Below, piece by piece: positions 152 to 11,584 of a stretch of 20,683 bases of DNA. The stretch is taken from IMG/VR virus record IMGVR_UViG_3300017988_000043. One strand, 5' to 3'. Position numbers and translations under genes: made by a program. This DNA comes from a virus. How positions within the stretch are numbered: the stretch's first letter is position 1; each line of letters starts with the position of its first letter. The notes beneath the pieces are model-generated. The model searched no databases. It saw nothing but the letters and a program-made list of their open reading frames with translations, and was not told the DNA's origin.

Positions 152-289
152 TTACCTCCGATGCGTTGTAGTGTGGTTTACTTCGCGCCAACCAGACGCG
201 CCTGAATCAGACTGATCGCGTCTGATACATGACTTCTCTCGCTTCCGCATCGCTTGCTTAATCTTGATATTTGCCTTTAGGTTCGCCAT
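152..289 (-). CDS. small ORF (45 aa, MANLKANIKIKQAMRKREK...), possibly leaderless
   Basis: ATG lies exactly 6 nt downstream of the TATACT box of conserved promoter copy 1. Its stop TAA sits inside the SD of the next gene. Confidence 0.2.
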   Translation of the reverse strand: MANLKANIKIKQAMRKREKSCIRRDQSDSGASGWREVNHTTTHRR

Positions 290-292
290 ACC

Positions 293-340
293 TACAGTAT
301 ACCGGGGAGGCACAGGTTTTGGCTAGTATTTTGGGAAATT
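293..340 (-). promoter_or_regulatory. conserved promoter-like element copy 1 (minus-strand TATACT -10-like box, TAGCCA -35-like, A-rich upstream)
   Basis: Plus-strand text cctacAGTATACCGGggaggcacagGTTTTGGCTAGTaTTTTGGGAAATT. Near-identical to copies at 11748, 13848 and 16283. Confidence 0.5.
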
Positions 341-356
341 TTTTGCTGGGTTGAGG

Positions 357-758
357 CTATTTTTGCTGGGATTCAGGAGCACCGGGCGACCCCTGCACAC
401 CTTGAACGCCTTGAATTCCTTGAATTCCCTGCACGCCGCCCTTACCGTTCCTAGCCGCCGTCATCATGGTAGCGATGTCTGAGAACGTAGCCGAGCCCTT
501 GTTGATGCCGTAGGGCAGCGCAATGAGCCCAATGAGGGAGGCTATCAGCATCGGCATATTCGCCAGCCAGATGCTTACCTGAGACACGTCCTGCAACTGG
601 AAGATGTGGTAGAAGCAACGCCAGATTAGCCACATGGTGAATATGGAGAAAGCATACATGAGCACGCGAGTGGACGAAGGGGTGCCGTCAGGTTCAGATA
701 GAACTCCACGCAGCCAGTTTAGAAATCTTGGAAGCGGCAACTTGTCAACCCACGACAT
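357..758 (-). CDS. small membrane protein (2 predicted TM helices) with C-terminal collagen-like GxQ repeat tail
   Basis: 133-aa ORF with ATG and SD (AGGAGAGAAG). Hydrophobic stretches IFTMWLIWRCFYHIF and MPMLIASLIGLIALPYGI. C-terminus GKGGVQGIQGIQGVQGVQGSPGAP is encoded by 9-bp tandem repeats (cttgaaygcc) at about 380-440. Confidence 0.6.
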   Translation of the reverse strand: MSWVDKLPLPRFLNWLRGVLSEPDGTPSSTRVLMYAFSIFTMWLIWRCFYHIFQLQDVSQVSIWLANMPMLIASLIGLIALPYGINKGSATFSDIATMMTAARNGKGGVQGIQGIQGVQGVQGSPGAPESQQK

Positions 759-772
759 AACTTCTCTCCTAC

Positions 773-3082
773 TTAAGCACTCGGTATCTCTTTTTCAGAG
801 TCTGAGTTTTTAAGCATGTCGTCAAACTGACGGCGTTTTTCTTTAGCTTCAGCAAGCTGTTCCTCGGCCTCTTTAAGTTTCTTACGAGCCCGTTTCATTG
901 CAGCCGAGGGTTCAACAGCCACCGCTGCGGGTGGCGGTGAAGGCAGGTCCTTGGCTGTCTTTAACCCGGCGTTTCCGAAGCGTGCCAGCATGACTGGGAT
1001 GAGAGAATTTTCCGACTCTACTGTGAAAATGAATTCCTTGTTTTGGTCGATGTCGATGCGGATGAAATCTCCAATATGAATTTGTTGTGTTGCCACGAGA
1101 TTGGAAAGCGGGAATACAAGACTGCGTTCGATGACTCTTTTTAGATGACGAGCGCCGTACTTGGGGTCAGTGCCTTCGTGTAGAAGGTGCTTCTTCACAT
1201 TATCACTGCAACCAAAAATAAATTGACTGCTGCCGGTTGCTTGTAGAATGCGTTGCTGTACAGCTTCGAGTTCGAGTTCAAGAATTTGCTCAAGATGCCC
1301 TTGACGCAAAGTTTTGAAGACCACAGTTTTGTCGATACGATTCATGAACTCGGGAGAGAATTTTCGCTTGGCAGCATCGACCGCTGCACGTTGAATCTTT
1401 TTGTCAAACTCCTCGTCCACATGACCAAATGGTTTCGGAGGATTGAACCCCATGGCTCCATCGGTGAGTGAACTCATTTCTGAGGCTCCGATGTTAGAAG
1501 TCATCACGATGACGCAGCAACTCAAATCTACACGACGGTTATCTCCCAAGGTGAGCGAACCCTTATCGAGAATACCAAGTAGAAGCTGCCAAAGAGCATC
1601 TGAGGCTTTTTCAATTTCATCAAAAAGAATAATGGTAAGCCGCAGGTTAGCTGTGTGGTATTGGTTAATCGCTTCCTGATTTAATACGGGGTGTGTCTCT
1701 CGATGGCCGAGGTAGCCGGGAGGGGAGCCGATAAGTTTGGAGATTTCATGGGAGTGTTGAAATTCTGCACAATCAATTTTGATAAAAGCGCGTTCATCTC
1801 CAAATAGAGCTTCGGCGAGAACTTCCACAACGTGAGTATTGTGGGTAACAGTGAAGTCTCCGAGCAAGAATAACCCATCTCCATCTAGTTCAAACCCAAA
1901 ATACTCACCATAACCGGCTGGCTCTATCTTAATACCTGTACGTAGTACATTCTTTTTCTGTCTACGTTTTGAAGCCGCCTTTCTGACTAAACGTGTTGGG
2001 ATTTCCGATGTATTTCCAGAAATTAAAACACGATAGTACACATCTCCATTCCCTGTTTGGCACAATTTATTACAAGGCTTAAAGTATGCTGCCATTCCAA
2101 GAGAACGTGCTACATAGCAAACATCATCAGCCAACTGTCTATTTTTAAGTGTAAATTCAAAATTGCCCACACTAGATTTGTTTAAATGACCATCTGAGTC
2201 AATGAGGCCCGCTAGTAAGGAAAGTCGATTATCTCGACTGTTGGCTTTATACACCAAGGGCACGTGTTTATTATCAAGCACTTTCAATTCACGTAATGTT
2301 TCAAGTATTGGATTAACTGCCCGGTTAGTCTGTCCTCCCCTTACTTGAGTGCTGATTCTGTAACGTGGGGTCTTCCCATCGTTGTAAATGTAAGGAGAAA
2401 CCTTCATCCCTGCTAAAGCAGCAATGGAGTACACACATTCAACAATCTCAGTATCGTCTGTAGTTATCTCAGCCCACTTTGACGTACCATCACCAAGCCA
2501 TAAACCAAAAAAGTAAGGGTCGAGGGGGGTTGGCTGTTCTGTGAACTCTACTCCAACACGGTACCCCTTGGCTCTATGCTTGAATGTTCTATTTTGAGTG
2601 AGGTACTCTTCAATAGATAATTCCACCGTTTTAATGGGTTGACCAGCGGTGCTAGGAGTTAACTGCAAGGATAAAATATGGGGTCGGTTGACAGTATAAG
2701 GCTCCCCCTTATTTGGCACAACTGTGTACATTTGGTCAAATCCATGACCAAGACGTAACACAGTTTTAGGATTGGAGTCAGGCCCCATTAAGAGGTCGCC
2801 AACACGTACATCTTCTACACATTTGACGGAACCGTCAAACATGAGGACAGAGGTACCACGGGCAAGGCACTTGCCGGTGCCGGTTGGGCCGAGGAACAGC
2901 AGATTGCCCACAGGACGATAAGGCGGGTTCAACCCGGCTGTGAACATTTGATAGATGTCAACGACGGCATCCACCGCAGGGTCTTGACCAACAATTTTAT
3001 GACGGAGAGCGCGTTCAAAATCTTCAACGACGATACTTCTACGGCTGGGGTCTAACTGTCTGCCTATACCTGTGCCTGTCAT
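773..3082 (-). CDS. Clp/Hsp100-family AAA+ ATPase (ClpB/ClpA D2-like module) interrupted by an intein
   Basis: Extein motifs: GQDPAVDAV, Walker A LFLGPTGTGK|T, LIGSPPGYLGH, Walker B ILFDEIEKA, sensor-2 YGARHLKRV, C-terminal coiled coil. The track start at 3103 is TTG. ATG at 3082 with AAGAGGGG SD is preferred. Confidence 0.9.
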   Translation of the reverse strand: MTGTGIGRQLDPSRRSIVVEDFERALRHKIVGQDPAVDAVVDIYQMFTAGLNPPYRPVGNLLFLGPTGTGKCLARGTSVLMFDGSVKCVEDVRVGDLLMGPDSNPKTVLRLGHGFDQMYTVVPNKGEPYTVNRPHILSLQLTPSTAGQPIKTVELSIEEYLTQNRTFKHRAKGYRVGVEFTEQPTPLDPYFFGLWLGDGTSKWAEITTDDTEIVECVYSIAALAGMKVSPYIYNDGKTPRYRISTQVRGGQTNRAVNPILETLRELKVLDNKHVPLVYKANSRDNRLSLLAGLIDSDGHLNKSSVGNFEFTLKNRQLADDVCYVARSLGMAAYFKPCNKLCQTGNGDVYYRVLISGNTSEIPTRLVRKAASKRRQKKNVLRTGIKIEPAGYGEYFGFELDGDGLFLLGDFTVTHNTHVVEVLAEALFGDERAFIKIDCAEFQHSHEISKLIGSPPGYLGHRETHPVLNQEAINQYHTANLRLTIILFDEIEKASDALWQLLLGILDKGSLTLGDNRRVDLSCCVIVMTSNIGASEMSSLTDGAMGFNPPKPFGHVDEEFDKKIQRAAVDAAKRKFSPEFMNRIDKTVVFKTLRQGHLEQILELELEAVQQRILQATGSSQFIFGCSDNVKKHLLHEGTDPKYGARHLKRVIERSLVFPLSNLVATQQIHIGDFIRIDIDQNKEFIFTVESENSLIPVMLARFGNAGLKTAKDLPSPPPAAVAVEPSAAMKRARKKLKEAEEQLAEAKEKRRQFDDMLKNSDSEKEIPSA
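1838..2869 (-). mobile_element. class-1 intein with LAGLIDADG homing-endonuclease domain, inserted after Walker-A Lys (GPTGTGK^T)
   Basis: Starts at Cys, CLARGTSVLMFDGS (block A). Two dodecapeptide motifs, FFGLWLGDGT and LLAGLIDSDGHL. Ends ...FELDGDGLFLLGDFTVTHN followed by Thr (+1). 344 aa. Lower GC than flanks. Confidence 0.85.
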
Positions 3083-3169
3083 CCTGAATCCCCTCTTATT
3101 CAAAGAGGTCAGAAGTCCGTTTTGGATACGGAGGGCACCAATGTTACATCTTCAATTTCAAAAAATTTT

Positions 3170-3210
3170 TGCATAAGAAAAGCCTCCAAAACATCTGGAG
3201 GCTTTTCTCA
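3170..3210. terminator. bidirectional Rho-independent terminator hairpin
   Basis: Perfect 8-bp stem AGCCTCCA/TGGAGGCT (3181-3188, 3196-3203) with a 7-nt loop. Flanked by an A-run on one side and a T-run on the other. On the minus strand it is followed by TTTCTTATGCAAAAATTTTTTG. Confidence 0.55.
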
Positions 3211-3560
3211 AGGAGGTCCAACATGAAAAAGCAAACCACAGTGTTGACAGCAACGGGATTCCTGACTACCCGTAACCCCTGATGAACGCCACGTTATTCA
3301 GCCACACTCAACGAGGTTCATGACGCCCCGCCTAAACGAGTGGAGGGATTGGTTACCCTCAGTCGGAGACAGCCGTCAGCGTATTAAATGTACGCATTTG
3401 ACCGACACCTAGCGAAGCTTACGGTTAGCCGACCGTAGCTTATTGTGCCTTACGCAGCAGTCACTGTTCCACCAACCTCGGAAGCTTTGCAGCCCCCTCG
3501 GTCGTACCTTACTCCCCGGCAGGGAGTTGTTCAGTCACGCCGTCAACATTCCTATAATAC

Positions 3561-4163
3561 TCAGTTCTCGGACAGTTTGGCAATAGCTTGTTTCAAATTG
3601 TTTCTTGCTTGGGTGTCGAATTTGTCAGTGAACGGCTTGGTGACATACAGTTTCGGTCGAGCCAAGATTTGTGTCAGCACAGCGATGCGGCCCTTCCGCC
3701 AAACTTCGGGCTCAACCCAGTGATATTCCTTGCGAATTTTCTCTGTGTTAGCGTCAAAAACCTCAGGTGATGCACCGAGTTCGGCAAGGTCCATGTCGTT
3801 AATGACGCTCAAAGGTTTCGCTGAGGGGTCAGTGGCGACGATGAGTGTGGCTCCTTCATCAGCTTCAGCCAAAGAGAAACCAAGAGGATGAGCATCGCGC
3901 CACCAGATAATCGCACTGTTCTCCTCGTTGTCTGACCGGGTAGAATCGTACACAGAATCGTGATACGCCCATGCGAAAAACTCCACAGGCGTCAAAGGCG
4001 TAGAGAAGAGGCTGTAGTATACTTCCAGTCCCTTCTCAAGATGAGCTAGGGTATGGTAGTAACGACCGGGCTCGTTGTATTTCTCCAACAGCCTGTCCAG
4101 AATTTCCTGAACACTCGATTTGTTTTTGGCTGGTGCCTGTCTTAAGAACTCAGCAGTAAGCAT
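3561..4163 (-). CDS. HD-domain metal-dependent phosphohydrolase (small YfbR/HDDC2-like nucleotidase-type)
   Basis: H..H and HD motifs: RYYHTLAHLEKGLEV...FFAWAYHDSVYD. ATG 4163 with AGGA SD. Track start 4169 is TTG. Confidence 0.6.
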   Translation of the reverse strand: MLTAEFLRQAPAKNKSSVQEILDRLLEKYNEPGRYYHTLAHLEKGLEVYYSLFSTPLTPVEFFAWAYHDSVYDSTRSDNEENSAIIWWRDAHPLGFSLAEADEGATLIVATDPSAKPLSVINDMDLAELGASPEVFDANTEKIRKEYHWVEPEVWRKGRIAVLTQILARPKLYVTKPFTDKFDTQARNNLKQAIAKLSEN

Positions 4164-4171
4164 AGTCAATC

Positions 4172-4900
4172 CTAGTAGAGCGTGTTGAGTTGGTTGAAGA
4201 GATAGCTCTGGATTTCTCTCAATCGAGCCTCAGGTTCAAGTGCATCCGAAGTGGCAAGATACTTAAGCAGAGTAAGCGTCTCTCGCAAATTTTCCCTGCA
4301 AGGATTCTCGGTGAGAATCACTTCTTTATCAAACCACTCGGGTTTTCCACCCACACGTTTGATGTCGTCATTGCCCATCCCGGTGCGGCGAAATAACTCA
4401 TGTACCGCATCAAGGAACGCCCACTGACCAAACGGCTCCACTCGAACGTAACGGTCGAGTTTCTCAGCTTCCGATAGTGCCTTCATTTCTTCTCGACACA
4501 ACGGGTCTTCAAGCCACCAAAAATTTTGGTCTCTTTTCGGATCAAGAACATACCCGGCCTTGCGTTGCGGGTGCCCATGTCCCCAGTCGGCGTAGCTCAG
4601 GTCCTTGTTGATTTTAGCCCCGTAGAGAAGCCGAATGAGTTCAAAAATTCTCTCTCGCGGCCAGCAGGTTAGCCACACACAGTTGAACAGGCGACTAAGC
4701 ACCCGGAGTTGGGTGAGAGCGCCGGGACGCATATCAAAGCCTGACCCTTTGCAGCAGTTGGCAATGAGGGTGTCATCAACATCGAAGATACAACGTTGGC
4801 TTAGCCAAAATGTTGTTCTCCTTTTGAGGTAAAATTCACTACACGTCGGCAGTGAGATACAAACTCTTCGGGGCTCATTTTTTGTTTCATCCAATTGCAA
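4172..4900 (-). CDS. HAD-superfamily phosphatase (DxDxT; T4 Pnkp-phosphatase-like motif I DVDDTL); start codon uncertain
   Basis: Motif I FDVDDTL. Downstream T/K/DD motifs plausible (GMGNDDIKRVGG). The frame opens only at TTG 4900 with no ATG/GTG and no SD. The 5' 100 nt overlaps the HNH gene. Confidence 0.55.
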   Translation of the reverse strand: MQLDETKNEPRRVCISLPTCSEFYLKRRTTFWLSQRCIFDVDDTLIANCCKGSGFDMRPGALTQLRVLSRLFNCVWLTCWPRERIFELIRLLYGAKINKDLSYADWGHGHPQRKAGYVLDPKRDQNFWWLEDPLCREEMKALSEAEKLDRYVRVEPFGQWAFLDAVHELFRRTGMGNDDIKRVGGKPEWFDKEVILTENPCRENLRETLTLLKYLATSDALEPEARLREIQSYLFNQLNTLY

Positions 4901-5388
4901 GTTCTACAACAAGGAACCACGTTATCTATAGTATAACCTACTGAATTGTTCACACGATCAATCCCATTGTATTTGAAAACGGCGTAGTTAAGCTTTCTCT
5001 TTTTTCGAGATAGATTGGAGGGGGGTTCTCCACAGTAGTGACAGTTTCCAGCAAACAGGGTTTTTAATTGTTCGTCTGTTAGATTAAATCCCAACCCACG
5101 GGCGACCGCGTTCGAACTATAAGCCAATCGAATTGCTCTAAAGGCAGACTCTTCGTATCCACAGTCGTGGGTACACCCACAGCTTTTAATGCGCTCTCGA
5201 TAAACATCAGTGCCTAGAAACTCAACTTCTTTTCCACACAGGCAGCGGAAGAGGTACACCTGTCGCTTTCTCTGACCAACTTCACGCATCCCTACAAACC
5301 GGACCACAGTCAGGTTTGTATAGGCGTCACCCGGCGTTAGAGTTTTCATCCAAGGTTTGCCGGTTAGATAGGTGTTAGCTTTTCCCAT
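4801..5388 (-). CDS. HNH homing-type endonuclease (free-standing)
   Basis: CHYCGEP...NGIDRVNNSVGYTIDNVVPCCRTCNWMK HNH core. N-terminal Cys cluster CLCGKE...CGCTHDCG. Markedly lower GC than its neighbours. Confidence 0.75.
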   Translation of the reverse strand: MGKANTYLTGKPWMKTLTPGDAYTNLTVVRFVGMREVGQRKRQVYLFRCLCGKEVEFLGTDVYRERIKSCGCTHDCGYEESAFRAIRLAYSSNAVARGLGFNLTDEQLKTLFAGNCHYCGEPPSNLSRKKRKLNYAVFKYNGIDRVNNSVGYTIDNVVPCCRTCNWMKQKMSPEEFVSHCRRVVNFTSKGEQHFG

Positions 5389-5496
5389 ACTCGTTAATAC
5401 CGTTTATTTGGCAAGCCCGTGTCCAAGTTGCCCACCCGGTACGGCCAACCCCAACAATTCCCGTTGTTTGCTGTCTCCAGCAGATTGGTGGACTTG

Positions 5497-5640
5497 CCAA
5501 ACCCTTCACATCTTCACAGTCGGGTCGGTTGTGTAATCCTTGTCCCCACTATGGTAAACGGCGTTCGCTATTAAGTAAACCCCGAAGAGGATGATTAAAG
5601 CGAGTATGAAGTACAGGAATTTCAACAGCAGTTTTTTCAT
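5497..5640 (-). CDS. small single-TM membrane peptide (47 aa, MKKLLLKFLYFILALIILFGVYLIANAVYH...)
   Basis: ATGA overlap with the stop of upstream gene 5637..5915. Strongly hydrophobic core. Not in ORF track (<60 aa). Confidence 0.3.
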
Positions 5641-5915
5641 GCGTGTCCCACTATCGTTGGATTCGGATGAAATCTCACCCTATAGGGGTTTCCTTTATCG
5701 AACTGTTCCGCGAGAAGGTTGCGGAATTTATAAAAGGCGTCTCCAACAATGCGTGGGTCGTTGCATTTTGAATCTTCGAGAAACGCGACGTAAAGCAGAT
5801 CGGTGGCTTGCTTGAAATTGTTCAGACGAACAGAACCTGTGCCGGTCAGCCACGCCTCCCGAGCCGCCGACCACGAACATATTGCTGCCGACATGTTCAA
5901 TTTGATTTCTTTCAC
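5637..5915 (-). CDS. hypothetical protein (92 aa)
   Basis: GTG start overlapping ACP stop (GTGA) with GAGGA SD 5 nt upstream. Protein-like composition. Confidence 0.5.
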   Translation of the reverse strand: MKEIKLNMSAAICSWSAAREAWLTGTGSVRLNNFKQATDLLYVAFLEDSKCNDPRIVGDAFYKFRNLLAEQFDKGNPYRVRFHPNPTIVGHA

Positions 5916-6151
5916 GCCATCCTCAGGTCTGAAACCAACCTCATAAGGTCGCCGACTGTATGCACTCCGCCAAGACGGTCGTCCGGGATTTCAATGTTGA
6001 ACTCATCCTCGGTGTCAATGACGATGTGAATCATGTCGAGAGAATCTCCATCAAGTTCTTCAATGGTGGCCTCAGGGGTGATTTCATCTTCGGTGAGGGC
6101 TAGGTTCTCTGCGACAATTCTCTTGATCCTTGCTTCATCCATCATGGTCAT
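5912..6151 (-). CDS. acyl carrier protein (ACP) homolog, 79 aa
   Basis: IEELDGDSLDMIHIVIDTEDEFNIEIPDD matches ACP helix II (DSL phosphopantetheine Ser). ATG 6151 overlaps the RNA-ligase stop (ATGA) with AGGGAG SD. Track start 6178 overlaps upstream gene by 31 nt. Confidence 0.8.
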   Translation of the reverse strand: MTMMDEARIKRIVAENLALTEDEITPEATIEELDGDSLDMIHIVIDTEDEFNIEIPDDRLGGVHTVGDLMRLVSDLRMA

Positions 6152-7173
6152 ACACGGCTCCCTTTCAGCCCGTTCCATTCAACTGGTTTTCGTGTCCAAT
6201 GTTCATCGGTTTGCACGTGCCCCTTGCGGACCCACTTGCCTACCACGTTTCGAAATTCGCGGAATGCGAAGCCTTCGGACGGTCGAACAACCACACCTTC
6301 CTGCGTCTCCGTGTCCAACGAGTCGCAAATCATTCTGCATGTTTCCTCGTTCCACTCACCCCAATGTAACGAGGGCACAAGTTCGATCCCCAATAGCTGG
6401 GACCACTCAACAGTTTCTTCCCACGATAGGCACATATTGTGGTCGTTCCAAATGGAGAACATCAGGAAGTAAGAAGGCAAACCGTCATATCGGATTGAAT
6501 GCACCGCCGATACGTTCTCGCCGCACACGCGCCACCCTTCGGGGATGTCGTACTTGATAGCACCCCATATCGGCTTGATGCGGCTCCGCCATTCTGCTGT
6601 CTCGAATTCCAGCGACCGGGCGTGCATGTAGTCGCGGTACATGGTGGTATTCTCACCGTCCATCTTTTCGGTGATAACCACATCTATGCCGTTCCAGCGG
6701 TCAGTGTTGTCCATCATGCGGTCGTCATTTTTGAGACCGGGGCTCCACGGTACATGATAGGTGCGGGGGTACTTCACCCGATTGGTAAACAGGTAGAGTT
6801 TATCCCGGAGTGCTTTTTGCATTCCTGACTCATCAAATAGCTCTCCTCGGAAACGTTGACCATTTGAGAGTATAGGATTGCCCCATTTATCGTATACACC
6901 ATCCACTTCAAGATGAGGCGGGAGGCAGACTTCCGTAATCCCTGCATCTTCACGGAGAGTTTCGCAAGTGAGGTCAGTGACCTCCGCCGCCAGATGACAT
7001 TCGGAACAAAGTGTGACGCCGTTGTTGAGATAATAGCCGCCATCATCAAATAGCTCCCTATCCATGATGTGATGAGCATCCACACCCGGCTTGTGACAAT
7101 GCACACACGTGTTCCTGTCTCTGGCGAAGACGCCTTCGCGGAACTCGTCGCGGGTTAGAAGCTGGTTGCTCAT
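6148..7173 (-). CDS. HNH nuclease domain fused to Rnl2/Rnl3-like ATP-dependent RNA ligase nucleotidyltransferase domain
   Basis: N-terminus CVHCHKPGVDAHHIMDR...NGVTLCSECH (HNH). Motif I ITEKMDGEN (KxDGxN, RNA-ligase type), motif III VCGENV, motif IV QEGVVVRP, motif V VGKWVRKG. The KYPRTYHV segment parallels the Rnl2 N-terminus. ATG 7173 overlaps upstream stop (ATGA). Track start 7179 is TTG. Confidence 0.8.
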   Translation of the reverse strand: MSNQLLTRDEFREGVFARDRNTCVHCHKPGVDAHHIMDRELFDDGGYYLNNGVTLCSECHLAAEVTDLTCETLREDAGITEVCLPPHLEVDGVYDKWGNPILSNGQRFRGELFDESGMQKALRDKLYLFTNRVKYPRTYHVPWSPGLKNDDRMMDNTDRWNGIDVVITEKMDGENTTMYRDYMHARSLEFETAEWRSRIKPIWGAIKYDIPEGWRVCGENVSAVHSIRYDGLPSYFLMFSIWNDHNMCLSWEETVEWSQLLGIELVPSLHWGEWNEETCRMICDSLDTETQEGVVVRPSEGFAFREFRNVVGKWVRKGHVQTDEHWTRKPVEWNGLKGSRV

Positions 7174-7421
7174 TGCCAATCCACAAACAAAAGTTTTGTA
7201 TCAATTCCCACCGCTGACAGGAAAGCCTCGGGAACGAAAGCTGAAGTGTGGTTTTTCCGTATCCATCCATGAAGGCGGGGCGCTGAACCTGACTCCAGCA
7301 TTGCCAGAGCCTCAGATTCGGTTACCTTCAACTCTTTCAGGAACTTTTCCCATCGAGACGGTTCAACCGGCCTCATTGGAAAATGCCCAGTTTGACCAAA
7401 TGGACTGTTGTTACGAGGCAT
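7170..7421 (-). CDS. hypothetical protein (83 aa)
   Basis: ATG with GGAG SD. Stop overlaps RNA-ligase ATG. Confidence 0.45.
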   Translation of the reverse strand: MPRNNSPFGQTGHFPMRPVEPSRWEKFLKELKVTESEALAMLESGSAPRLHGWIRKNHTSAFVPEAFLSAVGIDTKLLFVDWQ

Positions 7422-10753: not shown

Positions 10754-11584
10754 TCATGGGGCGGCACTGAAGTTCTTATTTTTAACTAATTGTGAAATGT
10801 CGCAGGTTAATGCCCCCTTATCCGTCCGTTTGCGTATCAAAACCGGCTGGACAATGTGGTTGTCCCTGCTTGCGTAAAGGTAGCGTACAGTCAGCACGTC
10901 GCCGACAGCCACGCGGAACTTACCTCGCAGGGAGCAACCAGAAACCCTGTGAAGCTGACCACGTTCGTCGTACACACCAATTTCCACACTGTCTTTCCCC
11001 TCGGGACTCGGACCCATGACAACTACGTCGCATTCCTTGGTAAATTTGAGTTTCCAGTGCTGGTCGGGACGCCCCTGCTTATAGGGTGCGTTCATGTTCT
11101 TGGATACAAGCCCCTCGCCGTGGGAAGCCAGCACAGCGTCCCACAGGAGCCGCTTGGCCTCAGGGGTACGTGCGGTTTCGACCGGCACGATTTGGGTACT
11201 GTAGCCATCGAACTCAGCATGATACCGAGCCTCGCGATATTCATAGACATCGTTCGCTATGATTTCATCACCGAGAATCAGGGCATCGAAAATGTAGAAG
11301 GTGCCACCCACCAGTTCGCCGTCGATAACAAACCCGGCGAGTGGGTGTGAGAGGAGAGCATTCTTGATACGGATTGAAAGCGGTTTGCTAGAAGACTGAC
11401 CTTCGCGATTGAAGAGGCGAAGGGCTCCATTCTCTTTGCAGATAATCAGCCGGTGTCCGTTGTGCTTCTCTTGGAAGCCGTACACGGCTGTCAACAGCAT
11501 ACGCTGGAAGTGGAGTTCGGTTGTCTCGGTCAGCAACTCAGCCTGAATCACTTTGCACCACCCTTGGGATGGTTGGATTGCCAC
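10754..11584 (-). CDS. ATP-dependent DNA ligase (minimal phage/Chlorella-virus-like, NTase+OB) with atypical motif I KHNGHR
   Basis: Motif I EKHNGHR, motif III FVIDGELV, motif IV GEGLVSK, motif V WKLK, motif VI VQPVLIRKRTDK. GTG start with no SD; first in-frame start after a stop at 11660. Confidence 0.8.
   Translation of the reverse strand: MAIQPSQGWCKVIQAELLTETTELHFQRMLLTAVYGFQEKHNGHRLIICKENGALRLFNREGQSSSKPLSIRIKNALLSHPLAGFVIDGELVGGTFYIFDALILGDEIIANDVYEYREARYHAEFDGYSTQIVPVETARTPEAKRLLWDAVLASHGEGLVSKNMNAPYKQGRPDQHWKLKFTKECDVVVMGPSPEGKDSVEIGVYDERGQLHRVSGCSLRGKFRVAVGDVLTVRYLYASRDNHIVQPVLIRKRTDKGALTCDISQLVKNKNFSAAP

Follow-up and report, generated by a model that had tools for sequence, protein, structure and literature searches.

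Can a mobile intein lie within the nucleotide-binding loop of a Clp/Hsp100-type ATPase, and how would it have come to be there? The question is raised by a 20,683-nucleotide stretch of viral DNA (IMG/VR record IMGVR_UViG_3300017988_000043; this whole stretch is called the window below), in which a minus-strand gene at 773..3082 encodes a Clp-like ATPase precursor whose Walker A motif is split by a 344-amino-acid (aa) insert. A reading made from the sequence alone had called the insert a LAGLIDADG intein within a ClpB-D2-type module and had proposed that it might be a new intein allele or insertion site. We consider it very likely that the insert is an intact class-1 homing intein of the PI-SceI type, placed between the Walker A Lys and Thr of a Clp ATPase of a probable jumbo phage, and that it homed there recently.

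The Insert Has the Motifs and Predicted Fold of a Homing Intein

The precursor is 769 aa long with a computed mass of 85.6 kDa, and its open reading frame (ORF) remains open over 2310 nt. The ORF list extends the gene to a TTG at 3103 (773..3103, minus strand), but translation almost certainly begins with the ATG at 3082, because a Shine–Dalgarno-like AAGAGGGG (3090..3097, minus strand, found by sequence inspection) lies 7 nt upstream of it and because both P0001, an intein-less homologue described below, and the ORF of the related locus L002 begin there. Within the longer ORF the insert makes up residues 79-422, and the sequence-only reading had its extent exactly right: 344 aa, in frame, at 1838..2869 between GPTGTGK and Thr. 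On the upstream side, the 71-aa N-extein (2870..3082; this and all further parts of the precursor are on the minus strand) ends in LLFLGPTGTGK, the last seven residues of which form the N-terminal part of Walker A (2870..2890), and the residues leading into the splice junction read NLLFLGPTGTGK followed by CLARGTSVLMFDGS. Further along the insert come FFGLWLGDGT and LLAGLIDSDGHL, and it closes with GDFTVTHN, after which the host sequence resumes as THVVEVLAEALFG. The first residue of this C-extein, encoded by the ACT codon at 1835..1837, would serve both as the +1 nucleophile and as the Walker A Thr of the GK(T/S) signature. The remainder of the C-extein (773..1837, 354 aa plus the stop codon) comprises the rest of the AAA_2 domain, a ClpB_D2-small domain and a charged C-terminal tail. 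Removal of the insert gives an ATPase of 425 aa and 47.3 kDa and an intein of 38.3 kDa, as computed from the translations, in agreement with the earlier estimates of about 47 and 38 kDa.

Profile searches with Pfam identified the insert as an intein carrying a homing endonuclease. Hom_end_hint (PF05203) matched insert residues 1-69 (E = 8.9e-17), Hom_end (PF05204) matched residues 213-305 (E = 5.6e-12) and LAGLIDADG_3 (PF14528) gave a further match (E = 3.3e-9), and the best match among all PDB sequences was PI-SceI, the intein of yeast VMA1 (E = 2.1e-22). The sequence-only reading had named the starting Cys, the two LAGLIDADG-type motifs and the terminal GDFTVTHN before Thr, and each was found where it had been placed. 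Block A, CLARGTSVLMFDGS (2828..2869), begins with Cys1, the predicted first nucleophile. Block B, YTVNRPHILSL (2666..2698), carries the NxxH motif of PI-SceI-type inteins, and block B of PI-SceI is itself NxxH. The first LAGLIDADG motif, block C DPYFFGLWLGDGTS (2480..2521), aligned to YLLGLWIGDGLS of PI-SceI and is conserved in the clade; the second, block E LLAGLIDSDGHL (2183..2218), aligned to FLAGLIDSDGYV and contains the invariant D224 and G227. Each motif contributes a catalytic Asp, and the motif pairs were closely matched (GLWLGDG with GLWIGDG; LAGLIDSDG with LAGLIDSDG), with both catalytic Asp residues and the Lys of NKH(V/I)P aligned. This conserved Lys lies in the NKHVP segment upstream of the second motif (2258..2275). 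Blocks F and G, YGEYFGFELDGDGLFLLGDFTVTHN (1838..1912), end in ELDGDGLFLLGDFTVTHN and provide the penultimate His and terminal Asn. Across an alignment of the window intein and 43 relatives (44 sequences), C1, H64, H343 and N344 were invariant and N61 was conserved in at least 90%.

The predicted structure agreed with these assignments. An AlphaFold (AF2) model of the intein reached a mean predicted local distance difference test score of 95.7 and a predicted template modelling (TM) score of 0.93, and a Foldseek search of this model against PDB returned PI-SceI chains (1ef0/1vde) first, with an E-value of 1.5e-25 and TM scores of 0.82-0.83. The matches that followed were archaeal VMA inteins, Prp8 inteins, I-DmoI, I-SceI, mini-inteins and the Hedgehog Hint domain, with the gp41-1 and DnaB inteins also among them. 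Judged from its sequence, the insert at 1838..2869 belongs to the canonical class-1 inteins: a LAGLIDADG endonuclease, the predicted active site of which is intact, is nested in a Hint splicing domain. It is a bona fide homing intein and probably an active one.

An Intein-Less Allele and a One-Sided Co-conversion Tract

The spliced protein has its best homologue in P0001, which is 425 aa long, 99% identical and intein-less. P0001 is encoded on L001, a 6.1-kb contig of the soil metagenome JGI 3300035696 that is collinear with window positions 224..6041 at 97-99% nucleotide identity. L001 lacks exactly the 1032 bp of window 1838..2869, and the site is otherwise unchanged: its coding strand runs from ACCGGCACCGGCAAG directly into ACCCACGTTGTG, or, written otherwise, from CTCGGCCCAACCGGCACCGGCAAG into ACCCACGTTGTGGAAATT. 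The horizontal acquisition that the sequence-only reading had proposed from base composition was thus supported by a natural allele without the element. The compositional shift itself is real but modest, the guanine–cytosine (GC) content of the insert being 0.430 as against 0.511 for the whole window. At third codon positions (GC3) the insert has 0.366; the corresponding total and GC3 values are 0.526 and 0.538 for the N-extein, and 0.469 and 0.445 for the C-extein.

Comparison of the two alleles revealed a strongly uneven distribution of single-nucleotide polymorphisms (SNPs). In the C-extein, 37 of the 40 SNPs fell inside the 258 bp directly downstream of the intein (1580..1837, minus strand; binomial P = 7e-20), with none in the 300 bp beyond this tract and a single one over 600 bp on the N-extein side, upstream of the intein. 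The tract is 86% identical between the window and L001, and its flanks are 99.4-100% identical. It differs by 30 synonymous and 4 nonsynonymous codon changes, the latter conservative, a pattern that points to purifying selection on the host protein. The position and one-sidedness of the tract, delimited by this clustering of SNPs, are the signature of flanking extein co-conversion during homing, as read from the two sequences.

The composition of the tract bears on the direction of the event. Its GC3 in the window, 0.384, is close to that of the intein (0.366), and the GC3 of the same segment in L001, 0.547, is close to that of the N-extein (0.538). From L001 to the window, 25 tract substitutions go from GC to AT and 10 from AT to GC, and 24 of 32 outgroup loci are nearer to the version in L001. 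Because of this tract composition, AT bias and outgroup comparison, a recent gain of the intein in the window lineage, from an unsampled donor of lower GC content, appears to be the favoured direction. Among 118 loci no donor matching the window's tract was found, the best being 79% identical.

Two further differences between the window and L001 lie away from the Clp gene. Homology breaks off at window position 224, from which L001 runs for another ~1.9 kb of unrelated sequence; this may be another replacement or indel boundary. A second mobile-element polymorphism is seen at 4778-5385, where the window has 608 bp with a GC content of ~0.40 and L001 has 24 bp in its place. The segment holds an ORF (4801..5388, minus strand) for a 195-aa HNH/EndoVII-like endonuclease (phrog_1035, E = 4.7e-20) and resembles a free-standing gene for a homing endonuclease that has been inserted between two others.

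The Host Is a Single-Ring Clp-Type ATPase

In-silico excision of the insert gave a product reading GPTGTGKTHVVEV, with a contiguous Walker A and a nearly full-length AAA_2 domain, in line with the expectation of the sequence-only reading. AAA_2 (PF07724) matched over profile positions 1-165 of 166 (E = 5e-37) and was accompanied by ClpB_D2-small (PF10431, E = 3e-14). The NCBIfam models placed the spliced protein on the D2 half of ClpB, ClpA, ClpV, ClpK and ClpG, with all scores far under the cut-offs; for the ClpB equivalog TIGR03346 the score was 251.8 bits, where 1232 are required, and the match covered profile positions 539-849 only. There is one AAA+ module in the 425 aa, and no N-domain, D1 ring or M-domain. 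As its scores are subthreshold and only the D2 half is matched, the host is classed here as a D2-only Clp-type ATPase with a single ring, and not as a ClpB orthologue. Of the proposal of a ClpB-D2-type module, the AAA_2/D2 module was upheld and the affiliation was not: the protein is ClpC-like and lies far below the ClpB threshold.

Among solved structures the closest relative is the D2 ring of Bacillus subtilis ClpC (E = 2.4e-59), with ClpB next. The host has all AAA+ motifs in common with both (ClpC D2, 3j3t, E = 2e-59; ClpB D2, E = 2e-58), and GPTGTGKT, ILFDEIEKA, GSPPGYLG, MTSN (sensor 1), PEFMNR and GARHLKR are all present and aligned to ClpC and ClpB. In the window, the pore loop GSPPGYLG lies at 1706..1729, Walker B IILFDEIEKA at 1604..1633, the arginine-finger motif SPEFMNRID at 1331..1357 and the sensor-2 motif GARHLKR at 1136..1156, all on the minus strand. 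The pore loop is kept in 120 of 120 family members, and Walker A as GPTG(S/T)GKT, Walker B, PEFMNR and GARHLKR are conserved in essentially all 120 homologues. A further motif, GAMGFN (1442..1459, minus strand), is a putative ClpP-docking loop of the (I/L/V/M)GF kind. The host segment TSNIGASEMSSLTDGAMGFN aligned with TSNVGASELKR--NKYVGFN of B. subtilis ClpC and with a gap in ClpB, so that the host MGF falls on the VGF of YVGFN in ClpC. The tripeptide VGF, IGF or IGL of ClpC, ClpX and ClpA is the loop with which these proteins dock on ClpP, and (M/L/I/F)GF occurs in 118 of the 120 homologues. We suggest with moderate confidence that the spliced protein works as a hexameric unfoldase and, in view of the conserved (M/L)GF loop, that it may dock on ClpP.

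Inteins Recur at the D2 P-Loop of Clp Proteins

Members of the extein family are abundant in metagenomes from soil and peat and in metagenome-assembled genomes of Terriglobales and 'Angelobacter', at ~65-70% identity and, in those genomes, on the chromosome. The family also has homologues in IMG/VR viral contigs of 45-463 kb. Among the matches listed, the best reached 73% in IMG/VR and 70% in metagenome contigs, and they included neither the contig of the window itself nor any match of 100%. No D2-only Clp ATPase match of at least 60% identity was found in cultured phages, where the top matches listed were 34-39% identical. The P-loop is intein-less in all of the best 80 metagenome loci and in the Clp-like homologues of the viral contigs. 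Two loci, L002 and L003, have orthologous genes with inteins that are 57-63% identical to that of the window and occupy the same position.

We searched the whole precursor with HMMER, exhaustively, against 1.84 billion cluster representatives and found further Clp proteins in which a single alignment covers the N-extein, the intein and the C-extein. At this D2 site, homologous inteins are present in nine or more further metagenomic Clp proteins. They include two-ring proteins (P0260, with Clp_N, D1 and D2 in 1157 aa; P0248, P0249 and P0380) and D2 proteins with a different N-terminal region (P0242, P0243, P0246 and P0247). In each of these groups, Pfam matches and the sequences themselves place a Hint/LAGLIDADG insert in the D2 Walker A, after GK and before T, starting with C and ending in HN. 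The eight intein-bearing Clp clusters that were looked up are metagenome-only singletons, and in total no fewer than ten clusters of metagenomic Clp proteins, drawn at 50% identity, have an intein in the D2 Walker A loop. As intein-bearing proteins occur sporadically among mostly intein-less homologues, the Clp D2 P-loop is, on the sequences compared, a rare but recurrent intein site.

Several of the matches required a closer look at their gene calls. P0121, P0122 and P0157, which start at an internal MGPDS, were considered as split or truncated inteins and rejected, the ORF of L002 continuing upstream through Cys1 and the P-loop. The MGPDS starts are a gene-call artefact, and the gene call of P0381 likewise starts at this internal Met inside the intein. 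Given such internal-Met calls, and with no match longer than 602 aa among those listed, the counts of intein-bearing precursors are underestimates.

A different intein was observed in an orthologous phage Clp-like ATPase (L032:3001-5466, from IMGVR_UViG_3300044801_000187). There the P-loop is intact, reading GPTGSGKT, and the pore loop is interrupted instead: KLIG is followed by CFVPGSRVLMADG, and the insert ends in VVENMTVSN before SPPGYLG. The Clp-like family therefore hosts inteins at no fewer than two catalytic motifs.

A Clade of Inteins Specialized on P-Loops

To place the window intein among its relatives, pairwise identities were taken from a MAFFT alignment of 222 inteins, and the insertion sites were compared in a set of 217 full-length relatives, beginning with C and ending in HN. 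Of these 217, 97% lie in Walker A loops, and their hosts belong to no fewer than 15 unrelated nucleoside triphosphatase (NTPase) families. At 35-61% identity to the window intein, the Pfam domains co-occurring with the relatives include PhoH, ABC_tran and AAA_24; ResIII and DEAD helicases of superfamily 2; thymidylate kinase (dTMP kinase), thymidine kinase and dNK; AAA_3 and AAA_5 (MoxR), DnaB_C, KaiC, AAA_28 and AAA_33; and phosphomevalonate kinase and classical AAA domains. The intein sits between GK and T or S in 189 of the 217 and between GK and Cys in one. In 22 it lies three residues upstream in the same loop, between G and (T/S/C)GK(T/S), and the site is another in five, three of which are degenerate P-loops ending in K. 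The C-terminal junction is HN followed by T in 150 cases, by S in 65 and by C in 2. Across unrelated hosts, the DNA flanks have only the P-loop codons in common, roughly CCNACNGGNNNNGGYAAG before the intein and ACN after it.

The relative nearest to the window intein is that of L002, with 63% identity, followed by inteins of ABC-type ATPases with 59-61%. The other Clp-hosted inteins are 40-49% identical to the window intein and 50-58% identical to each other, which suggests that the Clp D2 site has been invaded more than once.

Five metagenomic proteins of 390-413 aa (P0185, P0220, P0231, P0232 and P0237) are free-standing relatives of these inteins, two of them on contigs of 354 and 606 kb. 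They begin with Met, a few residues and G(F/L) in place of Cys1 and end in FTVTG, FTVVHK or FTVLNA in place of HN. In this they recall the yeast HO endonuclease, which derives from the VMA1 intein.

Comparison with Known Inteins

PI-SceI (1vde, 1ef0, 1lws) and the window intein are built alike: in both, an endonuclease with two LAGLIDADG motifs is nested in a Hint domain, the catalytic Asp residues align, and the sequence starts with Cys1 and ends in HN. At 344 aa the window intein is 110 residues shorter than PI-SceI, with 454 aa, and only ~48 residues separate its block B from the first LAGLIDADG motif, a spacing from which a much reduced DNA-recognition region is expected. It also differs in its +1 residue, which is Thr and not Cys, and in its host and site, a phage Clp-type ATPase and the Lys–Thr bond of the P-loop. 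The site of the VMA1 intein lies downstream of that protein's P-loop.

The insertion point itself is a familiar one. The Lys–Thr position of Walker A has been named the 'classic P-loop intein insertion' (PMC5050341), and Novikova et al. (2016, PMC4760082) document P-loop inteins in many ATPases, DnaB, MCM and RFC among them. The mycobacteriophage TerL1-a (PMC5050341) and the DnaB-b, MCM-a and RFC-S-a inteins (PMC4760082) have the same insertion point, between the Walker A Lys and a Thr or Ser nucleophile, and these classic inteins have the phage or P-loop NTPase setting in common with the window intein; Clp/Hsp100 AAA_2 proteins are not among the hosts named in the available text of these two papers. 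The only Clp-system intein named there is that of the Chlamydomonas eugametos chloroplast ClpP (Wang & Liu 1997, cited in PMC4760082 and PMC5050341), which belongs to the protease subunit and not to the ATPase, and does not sit in a P-loop. No published Clp-ATPase intein was found in the searchable full text. Insertions in ClpC described in a Heterosigma paper, considered as candidates, are ordinary indels and not inteins. The earlier suggestion of a new allele or insertion site was therefore half right. A Clp-type intein host family appears to be newly documented here, whereas the mechanism, the insertion site and the intein clade are of known kinds.

In cultured, annotated phages, the nearest relatives are helicase and large-terminase inteins of Klebsiella, Vibrio, Salmonella and Aeromonas phages (such as JD001, MEW1, KpV2811 and pYD38-A), 36-49% identical over the whole intein, with alignments that reach the upstream P-loop residues. 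Their host genes are unrelated to that of the window, and most of the inteins either have no annotation or carry the label 'homing endonuclease', 'helicase' or 'terminase'. Transfer of inteins between the Walker A loops of nonhomologous proteins, with viral links, has been proposed by Gallot-Lavallee et al. (2023, PMC10710043). Their cluster-1 P-loop inteins of Anaeramoeba show the same cross-family pattern as the window clade but belong to a eukaryotic genome and are described as having atypical N-terminal residues, whereas the window clade starts with the canonical Cys.

Proposed Mechanism and Alternative Explanations

Judging from the conserved residues, the 85.6-kDa precursor would be unable to bind nucleotide as long as its P-loop is split by 344 residues. 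Splicing would start with an N–S acyl shift at Cys1, the +1 Thr would attack the thioester, Asn344 would cyclize with the assistance of His343, and an O–N shift would seal GPTGTGK to THVV (predicted junction GPTGTGK-THVVEVLAEALFGDER). The products would be an active 47.3-kDa ATPase subunit and a free 38.3-kDa endonuclease. The latter would cut intein-less alleles at the P-loop coding sequence, and repair would copy in the intein together with adjacent extein DNA, leaving the 258-bp tract on the C-extein side. The wider clade of P-loop specialists has spread to the Walker A loops of many unrelated NTPases and has entered the Clp D2 loop, apparently, more than once.

Some points weigh against parts of this account. 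Splicing, endonuclease activity and ATPase activity are predicted from the sequence and a structural model, and the direction of gain is argued from composition and a weak outgroup comparison, to which a precise loss in the L001 lineage is the alternative. Repeated invasion of the Clp site is proposed from pairwise identities, not from a phylogeny. The ClpP-docking role of the MGF loop is putative and drawn from the alignment with ClpC, and no ClpP gene was found within the window or beside the bacterial homologues. Finally, the intein-bearing relative L002 (L002:3303-5535) is frameshifted close to its sensor-2 motif (KYGARHLKR), which puts its C-extein in two frames; this could be a sequencing error or the mark of a decaying host gene, and some intein-bearing copies may be in decay.

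The same pair of alleles could have arisen by precise intein loss, if a divergent intein-less allele had converted the L001 lineage and replaced 258 bp in the process. The tract would begin exactly at the junction under either scenario, and the lack of a matching donor among the 118 loci suits such an event as well. We nevertheless regard loss as unlikely: the tract resembles the intein in its GC3 in the window and the N-extein in L001, its changes run 25 to 10 towards AT in the window, and the L001 version is the nearer one for 24 of the 32 outgroups. An artefact of assembly, by which a chimeric or misjoined contig had created the insert, can be given practically no credence, as the frame is nucleotide-exact at both ends, the junction residues are canonical, and L002, L003 and nine other Clp proteins have homologous inteins at the identical position. 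Nothing specific speaks for such an artefact, although the source contig of the window was not recovered from the IMG/VR and metagenome collections searched. It is also very improbable that the insert is a splicing-dead remnant, the gene being then a pseudogene or a source of inactive 86-kDa protein. The frameshift of L002 would fit decay, as would the block B Asn in place of the commoner Thr; however, NxxH is the norm of the clade, the catalytic residues are all intact and invariant in it, the extein motifs are complete in a fully open frame, and the tract carries 30 synonymous as against 4 conservative changes.

A different question is whether the recently homed intein is kept because it is useful. 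It could act as a conditional switch, responding to redox state at Cys1, to temperature or to the stage of infection, and so time the activation of the unfoldase. With the P-loop split, ATP could be bound only once splicing has taken place, other ATPase inteins are documented to splice conditionally (PMC6195587, PMC5790916), and the second, unrelated intein in the pore loop of L032 means that catalytic motifs have been hit repeatedly. However, conservation of the homing site alone predicts insertion into conserved motifs, and the sporadic distribution of the intein, its 99% identical intein-less allele, the intact homing endonuclease and the fresh co-conversion tract are signatures of an actively selfish element; we therefore think a retained switch improbable. 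More specifically, splicing gated by redox at Cys1 or by a slow Thr+1 step might serve as a post-translational timer for a takeover of host proteolysis, a proposal that we regard as quite doubtful. If it were true, an inert 86-kDa precursor would become an ATPase, possibly one docking on the host's ClpP, only upon splicing.

Genomic Context

The window consists mostly of minus-strand genes, the majority of them small and unannotated. Among the annotated ones are genes for an HNH–RNA ligase fusion, an ATP-dependent DNA ligase, an acyl-carrier-like protein, a histidine phosphatase and a protein with the shoulder domain of the major vault protein. A 413-kb contig, the Clp homologue of which is 76% identical and intein-less, has the same gene order as the window: RNA ligase, small genes, a gene of ~210 aa, a gene of ~205 aa and Clp. 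Given this common order, the window probably comes from a jumbo phage of Acidobacteriota in soil.

At 5912-7179 (minus strand), the acyl-carrier-like protein (PP-binding, E = 1.4e-12) adjoins the HNH–RNA ligase fusion (phrog_24030, E = 3e-112), and a short ATP-dependent DNA ligase lies at 10754-11584 (minus strand). Together these genes make up a cluster for nucleic-acid repair such as large phages typically have. The vault-domain protein (465 aa, 19012-20409, minus strand) matched PF11978 (E = 8.5e-24) and a Vault_3 repeat (E = 1.4e-8) and had no PHROG match; it is unusual in a phage-like context. A scan of the window for transfer RNAs found none.

Implications

Our understanding of how inteins function is unchanged by these findings; what they extend is the range and the natural history of the elements. 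A Clp/Hsp100-type unfoldase is added to the list of intein hosts, with the D2 Walker A as a recurrent target. The spread of the clade over NTPase families supports the transfer from P-loop to P-loop that was proposed for a eukaryote in 2023 (PMC10710043). As only the P-loop codons are common to the flanks of its members, the clade also offers candidate endonucleases with short, degenerate P-loop targets. The window and L001 form an unusually clear pair of before and after homing in an uncultivated giant-phage population, with the exact empty site, a one-sided tract of 258 bp and the compositional fingerprint of the donor.

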